The notes under the pieces are model-generated. The model was not told where the DNA came from. It saw only the letters and a program-made list of their open reading frames with translations, and made no database searches. A DNA stretch of 64,000 bases from Gemmatimonadota bacterium (GTDB lineage: Bacteria > Gemmatimonadota > Gemmatimonadetes > Palauibacterales > Palauibacteraceae), in contig JBDHAC010000017.1 in assembly GCA_039588275.1 (NCBI GenBank), positions 1 to 64,000 on the forward strand, given 5' to 3'. Of this stretch, positions 2,791 through 49,340 are shown piece after piece (the stretch's first letter is position 1; every line of letters begins with the position of its first letter). The position numbers and the translations under genes are program-made.

Positions 2791-4253
2791 TCCAGCACGA
2801 GCCTCACCCCCACGCCCGTGGCCCCCTTCGGCTGATAGCCGCTCGCCTCATCAGCCCATGCGGTTCCGGCGATGTCCAGGTGCGCCCACTCGAGGTCCCC
2901 CACGAAGGCCTGCAGGAAACTGCCGGCGGTGATCGGCGCGGCCGGGCGGCCTCCCGCGTTCTTGAGGTCCGCGATGTCCGAGTCCAGCTGACGCCGGTAG
3001 GCGGGCCACAGCGGGAGGCGCCACACGCGCTCGCCGCTCCGCATGCCGGCGGCCTCCAGGCCCGCCGCGAGCGTATCGCTCGTGGACATGAGCCCCATCG
3101 CCTGGTGACCGAGGGCGACCACGCACCCGCCGGTCAGGGTCGCCAGGTCGATGACCGCCCGCGGGCCGAGCCGGCGAGCGTAGCTCAGGGCGTCAGACAG
3201 GATCAGCCTCCCCTCGGCGTCTGTATTCACCACTTCGATCGACTTGCCCGACTCGCCCCGGATGACGTCTCCGGGCTTGAGCGCGGTCCCAGACGGGAGA
3301 TTCTCCGTCGCCGGGATCAGCCCGATGAGGCGGTGTGGGAACTCCAGCCGGGCGGCCGCCTCGAGGATCCCGAGCACAGCGGCCGCGCCCGCCATGTCGT
3401 ACTTCATGTCCTCCATGCCACTCGCGGGCTTGAGCGATATCCCCCCGGCGTCGAACGTGACGCCCTTCCCGACCACCACGTATGGGTCCCCACCTCCTCC
3501 CGTGTGCTCGAGGATGATGAACTGAGGCTCTTGTTCGGACCCGCGAGCGACCGCGAGCAGCGCACCGAAGCCGGCCTCGCGCAGCTTGTCGGATCCCCAC
3601 GCCTGGACGTCCACGTCCACCTCATCAGCGAGCTCCCGTGCGCGCTCGGCCAGAAAACGAGGTGTGACGATGTTCCCCGGCTGCGCCACGAGCTCCCGGA
3701 CCCGGTTCTGAATGGTCGCCAGGATTCTCCCTCGTCGCACCGATGCGTCCTGCGCGGCCAGGTCGGATTCGGCGCCGGCAGTCCGCCACAACGCTCGCAG
3801 ATCCAGGGGGGAAGACGTTCCGCGAGCGCTGGCGTCGCGCAACTCATCGTAGCTCCAGTCGCCCAGCAGCAGCCCTTCTGCCGCCGCCTGCCACGACTCC
3901 GCCCGGGCGTCCTCGGGCAGGGGACGGAACGCGAGGGAACGCGCGCCGCGCTCCCGCGCGACCCTGACCGAGGTTCCCGCCGCACGGCGAATCCACTCAG
4001 CCCGGCCGAGCTCATCGACCTTGCCGTGGACGAGCAACACATCGGGTCGCTCCGAATCGCCGATCGTCGCCCACGACGCACGGAGCGACCCGGGAGTCGG
4101 CTCCCGCTCCAGGACGCGACCGATGGCGCGGCCCCACCACGCATCGAGGGCGTCCGACGCCATCTCCGCACCCGGGCTCCTGACGAGCGGGATGGCGACC
4201 ACGTCGACCCCCAAGTCTTCGATCGCACCCGCCCGGATCTGAAGTTCGCTCAT
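2769..4253 (-). CDS. pepA: Leucyl aminopeptidase (M17)
   Basis: GKGVTFDAGGISLK, MKYDMAG, NTDAEGRL and HLDIAG motifs. Confidence 0.95.
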   Translation of the reverse strand: MSELQIRAGAIEDLGVDVVAIPLVRSPGAEMASDALDAWWGRAIGRVLEREPTPGSLRASWATIGDSERPDVLLVHGKVDELGRAEWIRRAAGTSVRVARERGARSLAFRPLPEDARAESWQAAAEGLLLGDWSYDELRDASARGTSSPLDLRALWRTAGAESDLAAQDASVRRGRILATIQNRVRELVAQPGNIVTPRFLAERARELADEVDVDVQAWGSDKLREAGFGALLAVARGSEQEPQFIILEHTGGGGDPYVVVGKGVTFDAGGISLKPASGMEDMKYDMAGAAAVLGILEAAARLEFPHRLIGLIPATENLPSGTALKPGDVIRGESGKSIEVVNTDAEGRLILSDALSYARRLGPRAVIDLATLTGGCVVALGHQAMGLMSTSDTLAAGLEAAGMRSGERVWRLPLWPAYRRQLDSDIADLKNAGGRPAAPITAGSFLQAFVGDLEWAHLDIAGTAWADEASGYQPKGATGVGVRLVLEWLRDAA

Positions 4254-41781: not shown

Positions 41782-41908
41782 TGCCGGAGGTGGACCGGAG
41801 GGATCCCAGAGGCCGGACTCGGGGCGCGAGCGTAGCGAGGGTCGAGCGAGGACGCGGCAGCGGCCGCAGCTCCCACCCTCAAGGGACTATGTCCCACCGG
41901 ATTTTGAG
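41782..41908 (-). pseudogene. tRNA-Leu(CAA) 3' half (att-junction remnant) with expanded T-loop
   Basis: 41875-41908 is identical (34 bp) to tRNA 45320-45353; 41782-41790 matches the tRNA 3' end; the 10 nt between them are replaced by 84 nt. Confidence 0.85.
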
Positions 41909-42004
41909 ACCTGCGGAAGGGGTCACACAGAGCGGAAATCGTGTACCATTTGGGGCTTCCTCGCGCCCGACGTGTCCCTAGATGGCCCTACGTGACCCTC
42001 CGTT

Positions 42005-42026
42005 TTGTCACCGAGTTGTCACCGAG
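42005..42026. repeat. Tandem 11-bp direct repeat, putative integrase arm-type sites
   Basis: TTGTCACCGAG TTGTCACCGAG, about 100 bp from the CTCAAAA core of the 3' half. Confidence 0.65.
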
Positions 42027-42069
42027 ATCGACTGCCCCTGCTCCGCCCTCGCCTCGTCCGGTCCCCGCT

Positions 42070-42226
42070 GGAGCTGGCAGACGCGCCGGACTCAAAAGCG
42101 GCTCGCCACTCCGGCGTATTTCGCTGAAACGCCAGACGCCACGCGGCCTCATGCGCTATTCTAGCGTATCTCCAAAGCTCTGATACGCTCAGCTAGCGAA
42201 TCAGAACCCGCCCATAAACCCGCCCA
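42070..42226 (+). repeat. Truncated tRNA-Leu 5' half + att arm (inverted copy of 49040-49186)
   Basis: GGAGCTGGCAGACGCGCCGGACTCAAAA then GCGGCTCGCCACTCCGGCGTATTTCGCTG...; ends with AACCCGCCCA twice (42205-14, 42217-26). Confidence 0.85.
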
Positions 42227-42336
42227 GCGTGGGGTCGAACGAGAACTCGAGACCTTCTCCGAGCCTCGACCTCCTCGAACCGATGGCCTACGTTTACGAG
42301 GGCCTGATCCATACCCCCCGACGGGCCGCGCTGGTC

Positions 42337-45085
42337 ATGGACGCAACTGACTGGGAGCCTCTGAAACGGCTGTTCGAGCGGGCCAGCGCGTTGCCTGCGG
42401 AGGAGCAGGCTGCCTTCCTTGAGAGCGCCTGCGCAGACGACCCCAGTAAGCAAGCCCAACTCGAGTCGTTGTTGGCTGCCGCCCAGGAAGCCAACCCCTT
42501 TTTCGACAGCCTCGCCGATGCCGTCCTCTCGCTCCCGCAATGGACGGACGATTCAACCCCCTCTGCGGCTGCGGAACCCGATCCCTTGATCGGTCGGACG
42601 GTCCACCAGTACCGGATCGACGAGAAGCTCGGAAGTGGCGGCATGGGGGTCGTGTACCGCGCACTCGATACCGGTCTCGACCGAACGGTCGCGCTCAAGT
42701 TCCTCCCGCACCACCTGCGTGCGGACGACGCAGCCACGGAACGCTTCCTGGTCGAGGCCCGGGCCGCGGCGGCCCTGGACCACCCGAACGTGTGCACCGT
42801 GCACGAAATCGGGGAGGACGAGGACGGGCGGCAGTTCATCGCGATGGCCTGTTACGAGGGTGAGACGCTCAAACAGAAACTCGAGCGGGGGCCGCTCCCG
42901 ATCGACGAGGCGATCGATTACGCGCATCAGATGGCGGCTGGGCTCGGGGCTGCACACGCACACGACATTGTTCACCGAGACATCAAGCCGGGGAATGTGA
43001 TCGTCACGCCGGAAGGTGTCGTCAAGGTCCTGGACTTCGGCCTGGCGAAGCTGACCGATGTCACCCTCACTGGCACGGGCACCACGCTGGGCACGGTGGC
43101 CTACATGTCGCCGGAGCAGATCCAAGGCGAAGGAGTGGATCGGCGCACGGACCTGTGGTCACTGGGCGTGGTGCTGTACGAGATGCTGACTGGCGATCGC
43201 CCGTTTAAAGGGGACTCGACGGCGGTCGTGCTTCACGCCATCCAGCACGAGGATCCGCTCCCGCCCTCCGTTCTGCGGTCGGAAGTTCCACCGGAGATCG
43301 ATGCGGTTGTCGGGCAACTGATCACAAAGGACCCCGAGCAGCGGCCCGAGAGGGCCGAAGCTATGGGCCTGGGCAGCGGCGAGACGACCGTGCCCAAAGG
43401 CGTGTTCGGCAGGCCGACCGGGTTGGCGCGGCTCCGCTCGTGGCAGACCGTGGCGGTTCTGCCCCTCCTCGCCGTGGCCATCATCGTGGGCTGGGGGCTC
43501 ACCCGCCCGTCGGGTCCGTCTCTCGCGGTGCCGCGGACGGCGATCGCTGTGCTGCCGTTCGAGGACTTGAGCGTCGAGGCCGAGCATGCCTACTTCGCGG
43601 CCGGACTGCACAGCGAATTACTGACCCAGCTCATGAAGGTGGCGATGCTCACCGTCACGGCGCGCACGTCGGTTCTGGGCTATGCAGATACGTACAAGCC
43701 ACTCTCGGTGATTGCAGACGAGCTGGGCGTGGGAAGCATCGTCGAGGGCAGCGTCCAGGTCCTTGGCGATCGCTTGCGGGTGAATGTGACGCTCTTGGAT
43801 GGCGAGACCGGCGGGGACCTCTGGGCCGACAGCTATGGCGGCACGTTGGAGGACGCCTTCGCGGTCCAGAGCGCCATCGCCCAGCAGGTGGTGGTGGCGA
43901 TTGGAGGGGTCCTCACAGAGACCGAGGCGAGCGCGATTGCCACGCCGCCGACCGCCAATCCCGAGGCGTACCTGCTCTACTTGCAAGGCGAGGAGTACCG
44001 CACGCGGCGGACGAGTTTCGAGCCAGACCTCGAGATCGCACAGCAGTTTTACGAGCGGGCTCTCGCCATCGACTCGACGTTCGCGCTCGCGTATGCCTCG
44101 CTGTCCCAAGTCCACGCATTTCTCTACTGGATGGGACACGACCCGTCCCTCGGGCGGCTCGAGCGCCAGCGTGAGGCGGCGGAGGCGGCGCTCCGACTCG
44201 CCCCCGATCTTCCGCAGGCACGCTGGGCCATGGCGCTGGTGCACTACTATGGTGAGCGGGACTACACCCGGGCCCTCGAGGAGCTAACCGCCGCGGTTGA
44301 GGAGCTCCCGGGATCCGCCGAGCTGTGGATCTTTGTCGGTGCCTTACACCGCCGTTTGGGCCAATGGGATCATGCGGTGGCCGCGTTCGAGAAGGCCACG
44401 GCGCTGGACCCGCGCAACGCGAGTTCCATCGCCGAGGTCGGTAATACGCTCGAGTTCCTGCATCGCTATGAGGAGGCCATCGCGGCGTTTGACCGGGCAT
44501 TGAGATTGGCCCCGGACACTTGGTGGTGGCAGTTGACCAAGGCCACGATTTATCTCCGCTGGCTTGGTGAACTGGATACACTACGGAACACCCTACTGCG
44601 TGGACCCGAGGACTACGGCCCTTATGGCAGCCGGAACCTGTGGAGGGCGCGGTTGGCGCTCTGGGAGCGGGAGCCGGACACGGTGTTGGCGCTGCTCGCT
44701 GCGCCCGAGTCGGTGACGTTTGAGACGCAGGGTTCACGTGAGCCAGGGTTGCTGTACGTCGCGTGGGCCCACCAGCTACGTGGGGATCGTGAGGCCGCAG
44801 CTCGAGCCTTCACGGGTGCGTTGGCGCAGGCGGATTCGTTACTGCGCGAGTTCCCCGACGATTGGCGTCTGCGCGTATCACGGGGTCTGGCATTGGCCGG
44901 CGTGGGGCATGGAATGGAGGCACGGGCGGAAGCGGAGTGGCTTCGTGCGAATGTGCTGGGTCAGCATTACGACCGATCTAGGCGGTCCATCCATCACGGG
45001 CGTGCACGACCTACGGCTCGATCCACGGTGGGATCCGATCCGCGACGATCCACGGTTCCAGGCCCTCCTGGAACGCTACGAGTAG
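42337..45085 (+). pseudogene. Ser/Thr protein kinase with TolB-like and TPR domains, frameshifted near the 3' end
   Basis: LGSGGMGVVY, HRDIKPGN, DFGLAK, GTVAYMSPEQ, IAVLPFEDL, TPRs. The family-typical C-terminus LRLDPRWDPIRDDPRFQALL is in another frame after ~44975. Confidence 0.75.
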
Positions 45086-45300
45086 CAGCCGAGTCACCGA
45101 GGCACCACCGCCGAGCCGATCGGCTGACCCATCAGATTCCTATGCCGCGTAACAGCCCGACGCACAACGCGAACTCGAGATAGGCGGATTGGGCACTCGA
45201 GCGTTGGGGGGTAACCGCGAGCCGACTTGGCACCGGAACGCTCAGGTGGGACCCCAACGAAGACCACCGAAGGTCGGCTAAGTACAAGCAGGTCTTGAAA

Positions 45301-45385
45301 TGCCGGAGGAGGGACTCGAACCCTCAAGGGACTATGTCCCACCGGATTTTGAGTCCGGCGCGTCTGCCAGTTCCGCCACTCCGGC
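45301..45385 (-). tRNA. tRNA-Leu(CAA)
   Basis: GCCGGAG acceptor stem, CCGGA-CTCAAAA-TCCGG anticodon arm, long variable arm GGGACATAGTCCC, GAGGGTTCGAGTCCCTC T-arm; CCA not encoded. Confidence 0.95.
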
Positions 45386-45448
45386 GTGTCGTCAGAAACA
45401 GCTTGCACGCTACAACCCAGCAGCGTTCGGCCACTTTCGGTTTCGGCG

Positions 45449-45470
45449 TGCTGGGCGGCTCTGCTGGGCG
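45449..45470. repeat. Direct repeat CGCCCAGCA x2 (minus strand), putative arm-type sites
   Basis: TGCTGGGCG at 45449-57 and 45462-70, between the integrase remnant and the tRNA; shares CGCCCA with the repeats at 42205-42226. Confidence 0.55.
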
Positions 45471-45474
45471 AGGT

Positions 45475-45630
45475 TTACTTGACCTCCCGCAGCTCCACCC
45501 CGTGTGTCACGACCTTGAGCATCGTCGCATCGTCGGGCTGTTGATACGCCTGCTTGAGCGCCTCCAAGCTACTCCAGTCTACCGCCTGTGCAACGTCCAA
45601 ACCGGGCAGGCCCTTCCGCAACTTGCCCAC
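45475..45630 (-). pseudogene. C-terminal remnant of a tyrosine integrase
   Basis: Manual translation RKGLPGLDVAQAVDWSSLEALKQAYQQPDDATMLKVVTHGVELREVK* resembles an integrase box II (W...Y); it ends 90 bp from the tRNA. Confidence 0.6.
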
Positions 45631-46003
45631 AGCGGAGTCTCTGGGAGCTCTCCTGCCCTCCTAGCCCCGAACGCCCGTTCTCCGCCCGAACCCGCCCAGA
45701 GAACCCGTCCATTCGAGACCGATCGCGTCAGCGGTCGCGCTATTACGCGGCAGAGGAATCGTCTGGGTCAGCAGAAACGGGTGTAGGCGCGTCAGATCGG
45801 AAACGTATCGGACCACCTGTTGGACCCACATCCACAGGCGGTCGCATCGTGAACGTCACGGCGGGACCTCATTTGACCCCAACCGCTCACGCCCCGCTCC
45901 GCCACGACCTGCTGCAGTCTGCGCTGTGCCGCGACGCCATGCGCGGCGCCCGAATCTGGCCCGCGCCTCTGGGGCAAGCCCCTTGTCGTGGTGATCTGAG
46001 CCG

Positions 46004-46501
46004 TCAGCGGCGCGTTGCCGCGAACACGCCAGCCCGGGGGAAGTACAGACGGTCTGAGAACGTGCCGGTCGCCGTCTCGTTCGAGATCACCCCGGCTAGG
46101 CTCAGGACCTCGGTACCGGAGGGGGAGCCTCCCTCCTCGAACAGGACGATCAGGAGCTCGCTCCCGCCGGAGCCGAGCCGGAACTCCGCGGCGCCTTGAC
46201 GTGGCTCCCGGTCGGGGTCTCCGTTTTCGGCCGTCCAAACGCCCGACACCGCCTCTCCCGGCCGGAGCTCCGCTGACGCGACCGAGAACCTCGTCGGCAA
46301 GCCCGTCGGGGTCGGGTTCTGGCTGGTCTGTGTCAGCTCGATGCCGAACGTGATGGACGGGCTCGCGCCCGGGGTCCCGCTCGAGAAGTCATCGCCCGAG
46401 GCCACGTCGCCGAGCGGTTCGGGCGTCCCTGGCCCACACCCGATCATGAGGCTGATCAGGCCGAAAGCCACAAATGAGCGCCCCACATATCCCATGGCCA
46501 T
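46004..46501 (-). CDS. Hypothetical lipoprotein
   Basis: AGGAG RBS; hydrophobic signal ending MIGC; beta-rich mature domain. Confidence 0.65.
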   Translation of the reverse strand: MAMGYVGRSFVAFGLISLMIGCGPGTPEPLGDVASGDDFSSGTPGASPSITFGIELTQTSQNPTPTGLPTRFSVASAELRPGEAVSGVWTAENGDPDREPRQGAAEFRLGSGGSELLIVLFEEGGSPSGTEVLSLAGVISNETATGTFSDRLYFPRAGVFAATRR

Positions 46502-46649
46502 CTCCTCCTTCCTCGGTCTCCGGTACCCCCGGGCTCGGTCAATGATTCGACCCCGGGAATGTGTTCCGGGGGGGTCACCTGCCGCACAAACGGCGGCAGG
46601 TGACCGACCCGCGAGGCGCCCCGTTTCGATGGGAACGGGACCACCCAGC

Positions 46650-48212
46650 TCATTTCTTCTTGCCCTGGAATCTCACTTCACTGAAGAAAACGTCGGGATC
46701 ACCGAGGCGGCCATCCCCCCAAACCGCGAAGGTCCGATTGCCGCTCGTGGAAATGTCGTTGTAGTCGCCGAAGTTGGGAATGATGTCGGTGGCCGTAGCC
46801 GCCCAGTCTGTCCCGACATCGCTGACTCGCACATTGGGGCCGAAGGTGACCCCGCCATCCGTCGACTGCGCCATGAACGTGTTCGTGATCGACGTCCCGG
46901 CGTTGAGCCGCCGATCATACCACATCACATCTACGTTGCCCCCGGGCTCGACATGGACCATCGGCCAGAATTGGAGGGCCCCAGGGCCGTCGTCGTTCAC
47001 CAGCACGGGCGTGCTCCAGGACGCACCGCCGTCGTCCGAGTAGCTGAGGAAGACGTCGGCGTCCCCCAACACGGCGTCGTGATACGTAACGTACACCCGT
47101 CCCCGGTGTACCCCGGTCTGCGCGACGGCAATGCGTGGGAAATCGTTGATCGTGGGCCGGTTGTATCCCGAGGGCGGACTGAAGGCGATGGAGCTGATGG
47201 TAGACACGAGGCTGGGCGGGCCGAAGCTCGCCCCGCCGTCCGTCGACGTGGCGACCACGATGTCCGGGGTTGGGGACGTCAACCAGCCTCGTTCCCATAC
47301 CACGTAGACATCACCGTTCGGCGCAACGGCCGGCTCCGACCCCTGGTTGACCGTTCCGGCGATGATCGGACCCGCTACCACGGGCGCCCCGAAGGAGGCG
47401 CCGCCGTCGTGGGAGGCGACTACATCGATCTGAGAATTGGCAAACCCTACGAACCGTGTGTAGGTCACGTACACGTCGGTTCCCGTGTGGTCCACGTCGA
47501 TGAACTCTTTGTCAAGGAAGTCCACCGTCGAACTGGCAGCGTAGATGGGCGTGGCCCAGTTCACGGTGACCGCATCCGCCAGCCCGGTCGTGACGCAGAT
47601 GCCGCTGATCGCCCCGTCGAAGCAGAGGTCCGCAAACAGGAAGTCCTTGTCGTTGTTGACGGCCAGGGCTGGATCACCGCCGTGGATGAACCCCGCTGTG
47701 GCCATCCGAGGGAATCCGCCCCCATCTGTCCACGTCTGTCCCCGGTCGGTGGAGACCCCCCACCCAGAGAGGCCGTCAGCGGGGACGTAGAAGCCTGCCG
47801 CATCGTTCCAGGCCGCCACGAGCGTGCCCCCGGACGAGGCTATGCTGACTTCGCTCTGGCCCAGCCCCGGTTGGGCGCGGTTGTTCACGAGGACATCGGC
47901 CATGTCCGTCGGGCCGCTGGCCGCGGCGACGCGGGAGAACGAGGGCATGCCGATCGAGATACCGGAGCTCCGCCCGCGGCTGGTCCGAGCGTCCGCCGCG
48001 TCCGGCCTGCCGAACAGGAGCCGATACGACGCGGCCCCCAGGTAGTCCTTGTACGGTTCAGCACGTTCGGCCATCTGGTCCAACAGATCACTCTCTACGA
48101 CGCTGAGCGCGGGAGCGGCGCCCGGCTGCAGCGGCCCCCCCGAATCCTCGCAGGCCGCCATGGCGAACAGGGCCAGGCCCGCTGCGAAAGCGGGGATACG
48201 TTTCCTAAACAT
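46650..48212 (-). CDS. Sialidase-like BNR/Asp-box lipoprotein
   Basis: MAAC lipobox; repeated S.DGG.SF/W Asp-boxes; GGDP, DKEFI, GDYN, WGDGR motifs; AAGGAGG RBS. Confidence 0.82.
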   Translation of the reverse strand: MFRKRIPAFAAGLALFAMAACEDSGGPLQPGAAPALSVVESDLLDQMAERAEPYKDYLGAASYRLLFGRPDAADARTSRGRSSGISIGMPSFSRVAAASGPTDMADVLVNNRAQPGLGQSEVSIASSGGTLVAAWNDAAGFYVPADGLSGWGVSTDRGQTWTDGGGFPRMATAGFIHGGDPALAVNNDKDFLFADLCFDGAISGICVTTGLADAVTVNWATPIYAASSTVDFLDKEFIDVDHTGTDVYVTYTRFVGFANSQIDVVASHDGGASFGAPVVAGPIIAGTVNQGSEPAVAPNGDVYVVWERGWLTSPTPDIVVATSTDGGASFGPPSLVSTISSIAFSPPSGYNRPTINDFPRIAVAQTGVHRGRVYVTYHDAVLGDADVFLSYSDDGGASWSTPVLVNDDGPGALQFWPMVHVEPGGNVDVMWYDRRLNAGTSITNTFMAQSTDGGVTFGPNVRVSDVGTDWAATATDIIPNFGDYNDISTSGNRTFAVWGDGRLGDPDVFFSEVRFQGKKK

Positions 48213-49039
48213 CCCATCCTCCTTCCTTCTTAGGTAGGCCGGCGGAGCTTGGGCGCTCCGCCCGACGGGGCTGACGACCGGGAAGTCGGTTCTCCCGGTC
48301 TGCGCTTTGATCCTGCTGCCAGACAGGATCGTGGGCGCGATCGCCCGCGGTGAACGGTGGGGACGCACGAGAACCCTCCCGGCTTTCCCTCCCTCGCGCC
48401 GTCGTCGCGGCGCTCGGGAGGAGTGGCTAGGAGACAGATTTCGTGGGCTCCAAGGAACGATCGGTCGAATATGCGAGGAACATCCGGACTCGTTCCCTGT
48501 AAGTTGGACTTGCCAAACACGTGCGCCCCCTGTGGGTGTCGTGTTGCGGTAGCTGTCAGCTGGTGAGTTCCGTCACAGAGCCGCCAGCTGGCAGCTTTCT
48601 TGTTCTATGGTCGCCCGTCCCGCTCATCCCCGCTGGGAACTAGGCAGTCGCCTCCTTATATCCGCCAAGAACGAGAAACGGGACGCAACCCACAGGCTAC
48701 GCCCCGCTATTACTTTTCGTGGCTGTTCGAATTGGTCGGGTTAGAGAGTCCGCGAGACGTGAGCCGAGTTCGGTGCGAAGGGAGAGCTACGGGAGCGGCA
48801 AACCACTCAGGAGGTAGGCACCGTAGGATCCTGATGCTCATGCCCAAGACCCGCGCAAAAGACCACTTCCGCCCCGAGCCACAACCCACCAACTCTTGCA
48901 GTCTACCAGACCCGCACACGCACCGGCAAGAGGCGTTCGGCAAGAGGGGGACTAGACACCGCACCACCGACCTCGGGCGAAGGGGCGTCAGCTAACGAAT
49001 TGCGCGTCAGGGGAGTTGGTTGTCCGGAAGAAGAGCAGC

Positions 49040-49198
49040 ATAGGGGGCCTTCTGCTTCGCTAGGTCAGCCCATCCGAGCTCGAGCTATACGCTGGGATAG
49101 CGAAGAAAGGCTCGTGGCGTATGGCGTTCCAGCGAAATACGCCGGAGTGGCGGGCCGCTTTTGAGTCCGGCGCGTCTGCCAGTTCCGCCACTCCGGCG
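49040..49198 (-). pseudogene. tRNA-Leu(CAA) 5' half fused at the anticodon loop to an att arm
   Basis: 49159-49198 is identical (40 bp) to 45347-45386; after CTCAAAA the sequence matches the 42098-42215 arm rather than the tRNA. Confidence 0.88.
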
Positions 49199-49340
49199 AG
49201 TGGAGTGATTAGTAAGGCCGAGCGAGCGCGTTCGCTACTGTCGGTTGTCTCGGGTTCTGCCCCCTCAACTCTCTGAATCGCGCACTGCAATCCACGCGTA
49301 CGCATGGGTGAACCTGACACGGTTACCTGGAGGCCCCCGC

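Follow-up and report, generated by a model that had tools for sequence, protein, structure and literature searches.

A probably decayed two-sided hot spot at a Gemmatimonadota tRNA-Leu(CAA) gene, with a hairpin insert in the T-loop of a displaced tRNA half

Described systems and their likeness to the locus

Mobile units that split and restore tRNA genes are known in several forms. The Islander survey, in the portion of the text available, counts 159 5′-fragment islands and 125 tandems of 3919 (PMC4383910). With tRNA-gene islands as the accessible parts of two sources present them (PMC4383910; PMC6563490), the locus studied here shares a gene with a co-oriented fragment on the right side, a break at the loop and, for Islander, a spacing of 2–200 kb and a tyrosine integrase pointing at the restored gene. 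Unlike the islands in those parts of the Islander text, however, it uses both sides of one gene and has an inverted third fragment, and because its integrase is a remnant only, Islander would reject both units. The damage described in the same excerpt is a small deletion near the discriminator, whereas here a hairpin is inserted in the T-loop.

CIMEs, whose accretion is described in the accessible part of PMC5704250, resemble the locus in having lost integration and transfer genes, as both units here have, and in being stacked at one gene. CIMEs retain attL and attR and can be mobilized in cis by a neighbouring element; at this locus att cores stand at all unit ends, with the 49-kb distal repeats decayed and the displaced 3′ half plugged. 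They differ in that the locus has no conjugation genes or adjacent ICE, that its likely parent is satellite-like and that the T-loop insert would keep the 3′ unit from excising cleanly. The Prochlorococcus tycheposon islands, according to the available part of their description (10.1101/2020.12.28.424599), likewise contain partial tRNAs, fragmented integrases and degenerate elements at island tRNAs, and their satellite-like and cargo elements share integration modules, as here; they belong to another phylum and presumably another integrase lineage, and neither two-sided use nor T-loop inserts figure in that part. Finally, the repeats associated with Ssn nucleases (SRM/NTS), enzymes that cut ssDNA sequence-specifically at the hairpin, are, in the available text of PMC11893778, short GC-rich hairpins of uncertain mobility, like the T-loop insert, but tRNA goes unmentioned there and the copies number in the hundreds, against 5 here, all in tRNA pieces. 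The literature searched reports no such islands for Gemmatimonadota.

Against this background the locus is probably a decayed two-sided hot spot of a known, CIME-like kind. Both inserts are likely decayed tyrosine-integrase elements whose crossovers fell in the anticodon loop, approached from opposite sides: an upstream one of type A and a downstream one of type B that carries a captured, reversed piece of type A and whose displaced 3′ half later received the T-loop plug. The present units are probably immobile or nearly so.

Two units flanking one gene

The window is a stretch of 64,000 nt (contig JBDHAC010000017.1, assembly GCA_039588275.1), in which a sequence-only reading had placed four copies of tRNA-Leu(CAA), with the anticodon loop, 7 nt long, as the breakpoint of each partial one. 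A BLAST search of the genome with the tRNA confirms all four positions. The gene at 45301..45385 (−) is intact and is the only tRNA-Leu(CAA) called in the assembly, and tRNA nt 1–39 match 49197–49159 (39/39, E 7e-14), nt 12–39 match 42070–42097 on the opposite strand (27/28, E 3e-6) and nt 26–66 match 41915–41875 (39/41, E 3e-12). Within 41–50 kb the loop heptamer is found at four places and no others (41902, 42091, 45347 and 49159), once at each copy, and in an Rfam search of 41–50.1 kb the tRNA alone passes its gathering score. Two of the copies are less complete than had been thought: the inverted 5′ half is indeed present and ends at the loop, but lacks nt 1–11, and the 3′ half does start at the loop, but is interrupted by a T-loop insert of 53 nt and a second insert of 24 nt.

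The upstream unit (45347–49158, 3.8 kb; gene-to-fragment spacing 3812) is a 5′-half-restoring island. Its outer end is the displaced host 5′ half (49159..49197, −; nt 1–39, attL-like), which ends at the loop. Beyond it lies host upstream sequence (49198..49218, −) that in both congeners, G001 and G002, runs directly into the intact tRNA, so that the 5′ site is empty in 2/2 congeners. The unit thus has two features by which Islander-type islands are recognized, a co-oriented 5′ fragment upstream within 2–200 kb (39/39, 3812) and an empty site in relatives; a third, an integrase gene inside the unit, is reduced to a 47-codon remnant here and is absent, gene and remnant alike, from the 3′ unit. 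An empty site had been foreseen in the arrangement DUF1569–tRNA–hypothetical, which did not turn up: none of the loci retrieved from other genomes matches the DUF1569 gene, and the conserved neighbour in the congeners is a sortilin/BNR gene beyond it.

Inward from the host half comes a type A arm (49050..49158, −) whose first 13 nt are a perfect complement of tRNA nt 1–13 and whose distal repeats have decayed. It is followed by a cargo gene whose BNR-repeat matches are weak and do not reach the Pfam cut-off (46650..48212, −) and by an ORF without a recognizable family (46004..46501, −), whose signal peptide and cysteine, judged by eye, suggest a lipoprotein. Sequence comparison then resolves a stretch of debris (45690..45933), comprising an inverted type A repeat pair (45690–45712), an inverted copy (45723–45775) of a 53-nt motif that follows the downstream kinase gene and, before that copy, a second kinase-end remnant (45848–45933) resembling the kinase on C21. 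Next to the gene lie the C-terminal remnant of a tyrosine integrase (45475..45618, −) and an element-derived region that replaces the host's upstream sequence (45386..45473, −; type A repeat pair at 45452–45473). This region presumably serves as the promoter region of the intact gene; a promoter scan returned 0 sites at the locus and no consensus promoter in 45386..45473. The whole type A arm was also considered as an inverted copy of the integrase-side arm, an idea dropped once the repeat pairs proved to have one and the same orientation at either end of the unit.

The integrase remnant was overlooked by the sequence-only reading, which had correctly noted that the window lacks an intact integrase. 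It holds the last 47 codons, 35/47 (74%) identical to the end of an intact 412-aa integrase (G094:C46; PHROG 1, E 1.6e-21) that itself lies upstream of tRNA-Leu(CAA), has terminase and head-protease genes as neighbours and is accompanied by an arm repeat pair matching at 21/22 positions. That element looks satellite-like, and the parent of the type A unit may, by sequence resemblance, have been of the same sort. On G094:C264 the end of another integrase of this kind directly precedes tRNA-Leu(CAA). Of 30 loci of the integrase family, 4 have the integrase immediately before an intact tRNA and in the direction of that tRNA, and in 7 it converges on a tRNA 3′ end. Junctions that stop at nt 39 recur in G092, G068 and G064, and 3′-half arrays occur in G001 and G127. 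Together with the empty 5′ site and the intact relative of the remnant, these junctions and arrays sustain the earlier proposal of two element types that exploited one loop, each from its own side. The tRNA-Leu(TAA) gene on C21 of the same genome has the same layout, and its last unit is absent from G001.

The downstream unit (41909–45346, 3.4 kb) is an ordinary 3′-half-restoring island with a co-oriented 3′ fragment downstream at a gene-to-fragment spacing of 3445. The displaced 3′ half (41782..41908, −; nt 33–85, attR-like) starts at the anticodon loop and is interrupted twice, the second time by 24 nt replacing 2 nt between T-stem and acceptor stem (41791..41814, −), an insert absent from the matching site at L175, a locus of another genome. 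The adjoining type B arm (41909..42026, −) bears an 11-nt direct-repeat pair at 42005–42026, likely integrase arm sites, and is 100/111 identical to L175 over 41916–42026; the searches identified no integrase for it. Then follow the inverted 5′ half (42070..42097, +; nt 12–39, ending at the loop), which unlike an Islander-type fragment is inverted and stops short of the gene end, and a type A arm (42098..42230, +) that begins with a near-complement of tRNA nt 1–13 and keeps its distal repeat pair (42206–42227). A Ser/Thr kinase–TPR cargo gene (42337..45085, +) is frameshifted near 44970, where some 79 nt are missing relative to the paralogue on C29, either in reality or through assembly error. 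After it come the 53-nt motif (45120..45172), also found in G002, and the near arm of the unit (45215..45300, −), common to G002 at 77% over 86 nt. A clean empty 3′ site was not found in the congeners: G001 carries different 3′ units, and in G002 the contig breaks off within the kinase.

The composite end, inverted half with its arms, recurs in L175, and the other end of the unit in G002, so that the inverted half-site is best read as cargo of the 3′ unit. The same recurrence bears on whether the extra copies are an assembly artefact or a chimera of the metagenome bin, an outcome that the sequence-only reading had named as fatal to its proposal. The genome is a bin of 103 contigs, and at a depth of about 3 no read contig of the two sets compared spans any junction; yet the composite end stands in an independent genome, the copies have diverged arms (the two 5′-type junctions are 83% alike over 137 nt), the flanks are collinear with both congeners, and exact-match pieces at a depth of about 3 fall in both flanks and inside the 5′ unit. 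An artefact is highly improbable.

Mobility and function of the half-sites

In the favored reading of two decayed elements, the sequence of events would be as follows. The type A element would have brought its own upstream region and 5′ half, pushing the host's 5′ half out to 49159–49197, and would later have lost its integrase except for the last 47 codons. The type B element would have restored the 3′ half in the usual way, and its unit carries the reversed type A piece (truncated 5′ half, arm and kinase gene), presumably by capture. The old 3′ half, once displaced, would then have received the hairpin insert, and the site can still receive new elements. Excision at an att site rebuilds the gene from the displaced half. 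Because the displaced 3′ half is now plugged, excision of the 3′ unit would yield a broken tRNA, and the unit is thus predicted to be locked in.

An alternative holds that the half-sites form a maintained, integron-like platform, in which type A and type B integrases acting in trans carry integrase-less units from one tRNA locus to another and a head-to-head double site lets either of them address the kinase unit. The type A arm does recur, in nine occurrences (ten places were listed, one of them a tRNA-Val arm sharing the distal part only) in the five matching of 145 genomes of the order, plus L175. In many cases it lies far from a Leu gene, in islands that adjoin tRNA-Arg in G001 or close to tRNA-Ile in G002, and it frequently precedes the same kinase; at 42 kb its distal repeats are intact. 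The truncated half is 28/28 identical in L175 amid neighbours that are 78–90% identical, and such full conservation, unlike pure debris, hints at selection (one genome pair, about 1–5% by a simple binomial estimate). Against this, no cognate intact integrase was found in the genome, the closest intact one being 32% identical to the cognate type; the 49-kb arm has lost its distal repeats and the kinase is frameshifted, which with the integrase remnant are signs of decay; and the stray halves are truncated at points ranging between about nt 3 and nt 21, with one loop mutated and one arm without a half. The arm pattern has no true hit in the viral scan (0 matches) or in the metagenome scan, where 0/10 matches continue into the arm or adjoin a tRNA half. 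By standard att-site logic, recombination between the intact gene and the inverted site at 42 kb would leave the tRNA gene broken, as would most possible recombinations at the locus.

An integron has an integron integrase beside its array and attC sites between its cassettes. Here none of the genome's 9 PF00589 matches is on this contig, and the unit junctions are tRNA halves plus arms. We consider a maintained platform unlikely, and active swapping or inversion, as the sequence-only reading had envisaged for its units, is not supported; the inverted half came as cargo common to another genome, and the units as they now stand are probably immobile or close to it. With the genome at 86% completeness, a cognate integrase could be missing from the assembly.

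The start of the type A arm might instead have been selected as RNA, folding onto the orphan 5′ half as the host transcribes it and so silencing or ending the transcript. The 49-kb stem is a perfect 13 bp, its 62 nt folding at −37 kcal/mol; the chance that an exact 13-mer falls within 30 nt is 2e-5, and the TAA locus forms a 13-bp stem with two G–U pairs, arm and tRNA co-varying at position 6. The other readable Leu(CAA) 5′-half junctions (G092 and G064), however, are without the complement in 2/2 cases, as are the Val 5′ halves; in L175 the half is of CAA origin but the arm of TAA type, the segment is still there where nt 1–11 are lost, and a terminator scan omits the 49-kb stem. An old inverted duplication of the tRNA 5′ end would explain the complement without any function, and selection for the fold seems improbable.

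The T-loop hairpin insert and its implications

The feature of this locus that we find undescribed, in an otherwise known kind of locus, is the 53-nt hairpin-forming insert that replaces T55 in the displaced 3′ half (41822..41874, −) and that the sequence-only reading had missed. It belongs to a family whose members occupy this one T-loop position in fragments of many different tRNAs: 30/41 GTDB loci pass a strict test (chance 0.6%), 39/41 insert records are from Gemmatimonadota, and all 5 copies in this genome are within tRNA pieces. The motif is in 0/112 called tRNA genes, a count that is partly circular, since plugged genes escape calling. One proposal, that the insert is confined to displaced halves, was set aside in view of L162, which, insert ignored, resembles a complete tRNA-Gly(TCC) within an array of tRNAs. 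No description of T-loop hairpin inserts was found in the literature searched.

Candidate sources for the insert were likewise sought. The viral scan gave no match, and the 41 insert loci have no dedicated neighbour gene, kinase-type cargo being the sole one shared. The small GIY-YIG nuclease gene that would be expected of an Ssn-type repeat is not associated with the insert and was not found in the genome, its 2 PF01541 matches being frames of 706 and 432 aa on other contigs. The sole Y1 transposase-like frame was rejected as a source, with no insert copy near it.

Our joint, tentative and rather doubtful proposal is that a protein-less hairpin mini-element of Gemmatimonadota homes to tRNA T-loops and survives only in redundant copies, that plugging a displaced half fixes a reversible island and may restrict plugged att sites to existing arrays, and that selection maintains the kinase unit's head-to-head double att end, which lets two integrase families move the unit.

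As an architecture, the locus is nothing new to biology. Software that insists on an integrase or throws out inverted fragments would overlook or misinterpret loci of this sort. One integrase family of this order uses both loop orientations and so offers a natural set for studying target-orientation flips. If the T-loop insert is a homing mini-element and holds islands where they are, it would give mobile cargo a simple way of becoming fixed.

Four tRNA-Leu(CAA) copies and the upstream unit

The genome under study, a 4.1-Mb bin that is 86% complete with 67% GC, has a single intact tRNA-Leu(CAA) gene in its assembly, called by ARAGORN at 45301-45385 on the minus strand. BLAST of the genome adds three fragments: nt 1-39 at 49197-49159 on the minus strand (39/39), nt 12-39 inverted at 42070-42097 (27/28), and nt 26-66 at 41915-41875 on the minus strand (39/41). 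With the anticodon-loop heptamer occurring four times within 41-50 kb, once per copy, the four loop-bearing copies described in the sequence-only reading are borne out; the inverted 5' half is indeed present but lacks nt 1-11, and the 3' half, also present, is interrupted twice. Both 5'-type junctions run on into one kind of arm, type A (83% alike over 137 nt), distinct from the type B arm of the displaced 3' half.

In both congeners searched (G001 and G002), the sequence of 49198-49218 leads directly into intact tRNA-Leu(CAA), so that the 3812 bp between the loops (the upstream unit, 45347-49158) are an insertion displacing the host 5' half, and the 5' site is empty in each congener. To the earlier account we add an integrase remnant adjoining the intact gene: 45475-45618 encodes 47 residues, 35 of which are identical to the C-terminal end of a 412-aa integrase (PHROG 1) on contig C46 of G094, a related genome. 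That enzyme is directed at a tRNA-Leu(CAA) 1.8 kb on, its element also carries terminase and head-protease genes, and a repeat pair immediately ahead of the tRNA matches the type A arm (21/22); in the window, the type A repeat pair comes after the stop codon of the remnant. Contig C264 of G094 has another such integrase end immediately upstream of tRNA-Leu(CAA). Two intact tRNA-Leu(CAA) genes per bin, each with an element-type upstream region, occur in G094 (C46, C264) and G090 (C212, C132), through either strain mixture or true duplication. Junctions terminating at nt 39 were found in at least three genomes (G092, G068 and G064), a lower bound from the best 150 matches, with 255 more beyond them. 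Many tyrosine integrases are established to cross over in the tRNA anticodon loop, and the break points, taken with this biology, suggest a crossover within the loop here.

The first nucleotides of the type A arm complement tRNA nt 1-13. Pairing is perfect at 49 kb and includes two G-U pairs at the tRNA-Leu(TAA) locus; the chance expectation is 2e-5. The complement is missing from both other readable Leu(CAA) junctions, and L175, a locus from another genome, has a TAA-type arm behind a CAA half. Judged by sequence, the predicted fold-back stem, arm start paired with orphan 5' half, is real but specific to this type A arm lineage. We read it as an old inverted duplication; a part in ending the orphan 5'-half transcript is the less likely alternative.

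Within the unit, a strong 45-nt palindrome (46566-46611) separates the two cargo genes, and a conserved non-coding block of ~100 nt (48498-48600), with a hairpin and T-run at its end, gave no match in an Rfam scan. Copies of the block lie elsewhere in the genome (C38:30233-30331, C73:1458-1560, C9:89482-89581, C47:23420-23488), three 87-90% alike and a fourth 77%, several of them upstream of secreted-looking cargo genes in divergent orientation.

The downstream unit and the prospects of mobility

The 3445 bp downstream of tRNA-Leu(CAA) (the unit at 41909-45346) have the typical layout of a 3'-restoring island. Its near end, comprising arm, 53-nt motif and converging kinase end, is common to G002, and its far end is found entire in L175, in the order kinase, type A arm, inverted nt 12-39, linker, type B arm and 3' half. 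Because L175 comes from a different genome yet shares this entire composite end, the inverted half-site is part of the unit's cargo, and not the assembly artefact that the sequence-only reading had held open. The inverted half is the same over all 28 nt in the window and L175, whereas arms (104/133 and 100/111) and linker (36/43) have diverged, which speaks against pure debris. Among the order's 145 genomes, 5 have matches to the type A arm. These arms often lie in islands at other tRNAs, distant from any Leu gene; they usually follow a Leu 5' half shortened to a point between about nt 3 and nt 21, and the kinase of this unit often comes next. Such a distribution is what would be expected if other islands carried pieces of type A elements with them. 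Arrays of 3' halves occur at tRNA-Leu(CAA) in G001 and G127.

The absence of an intact integrase holds, as none of the nine PF00589 matches in the genome falls on the window contig. The proposal that the units might be excised, swapped or inverted in trans fares poorly: the sole type A integrase found intact in the genome shares just 32% identity with the G094 enzyme and is located at tRNA-Lys, where the arm repeats differ, and the 49-kb arm has lost its distal repeats. The Ser/Thr kinase-TPR gene (42337..45085) is missing ~79 nt near its end relative to a 74% identical paralogue, giving a frameshift that is either genuine or an assembly error. Since the bin is incomplete, a helper integrase elsewhere is possible. 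By att-site logic, only excision of the upstream unit would restore a clean tRNA gene. The tRNA would be split if the 42-kb site recombined with the intact gene, and after excision of the downstream unit it would be reassembled with the plugged half; inversion between the 42-kb and 49-kb sites would leave the gene unharmed while joining two like ends.

The type A integrase family at other tRNA loci

An order-wide search with the intact family member on C70 as query gave matches in 66 of 145 genomes. The integrase is co-directional with and just upstream of an intact tRNA at 4 of the 30 family loci covered (Met twice, Pro, Ala) and converges on a tRNA 3' end at 7, so the family uses both orientations; at the remaining 19, no intact tRNA occurs within 330 nt. 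The genome under study holds further family remnants upstream of tRNA-Leu(TAG) and tRNA-Pro(TGG), and its tRNA-Leu(TAA) on C21 has the same 5'-half-plus-arm layout as tRNA-Leu(CAA), with a last unit missing from G001. Within C21:45392-53478, that gene too is used from both sides: upstream lie two units of type A, and a frameshifted integrase from a different family is directed towards its 3' end.

The island behind tRNA-Lys(CTT) (C70:2210-19218), with an intact 413-aa integrase, also contains clustered fragments of foreign tRNAs, namely three plugged Pro halves, one Arg half and one Ala-like piece. Two near-identical tRNA-Ile(GAT)-like 5' halves (C98 near 4100-4230, C2 near 1560-1680), each with upstream region and common arm, break at the anticodon loop; no intact tRNA-Ile was called in the assembly. 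An ARAGORN tRNA-Thr(GGT) at C98:517-608 is a false call produced by the fusion of a tRNA-Pro 3' half with an element arm. At L190 (G088:C342), two tRNA-Val(TAC) 5' halves stand in tandem, their arm having only the distal repeat pair in common with type A.

The T-loop insert and known systems

In the displaced 3' half, a 53-nt hairpin insert (41822-41874) replaces T55; elsewhere in the genome, tRNA-Pro 3' pieces contain four related inserts. Exact pattern matches in an order-wide search cluster in three genomes of the genus (5, 9 and 5); the fetched sites are T-loops in Pro, Leu(CAA), Leu(TAA), Gly, Arg, Ala and Lys pieces, except five that by eye are not tRNA-like. A GTDB scan gave 41 loci, several from one genome and some repeating sites of the order-wide search; 39 of 41 named records with the motif are Gemmatimonadota or its orders. 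By a strict criterion, a 5-bp T-stem closes around the insert at 30 of the 41 loci, counting L152 with its wrong, distant partner, versus 124 of 20,500 random positions; most of the 11 failures look by eye like worn T-arms. Inserts are 38-110 nt long and lie between T54 and T55 without clear duplication. Masking the insert allowed a relaxed tRNA call at 6 of 32 sites; one of these, L162 in a tRNA array, looks like an entire tRNA-Gly(TCC) carrying a T-loop insert of 75 nt. Given the T-stem test and L162, T-loops appear to be the insert's target, and its survival seems tied to spare copies in general rather than to displaced halves alone. A literature search aimed at such inserts found no published description.

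In other genera, Leu 3' pieces carry unrelated hairpin-rich inserts at this same T-loop position (L204, L205, L206, L209, L210). At L206, L209 and L210, the 3' half or gene is directly followed by short, tandemly repeated tRNA-Leu 3' ends, each carrying a hairpin-rich insert of a different family in the T-loop. In some plugged Pro halves of G001 and G002 (L129, L130, L132, L134, L136), a second hairpin-like sequence replaces the anticodon loop.

Integration at the tRNA 5' side is described as less frequent, yet known (PMC6563490), and the Islander account gives 159 islands with 5' fragments and 125 tandems among 3919 (PMC4383910). As far as these descriptions go, the locus works like Islander islands, but without the integrase that Islander requires (PMC4383910), like CIMEs, integrase-less units with att ends (PMC5704250), among which it is a candidate member, and like the islands of tycheposons, strewn with partial tRNAs and broken integrases (10.1101/2020.12.28.424599). 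Its architecture is otherwise that of a known kind of tRNA-gene island; what is new relative to known islands is the two-sided use of the tRNA gene together with the inverted captured site and the T-loop plug.
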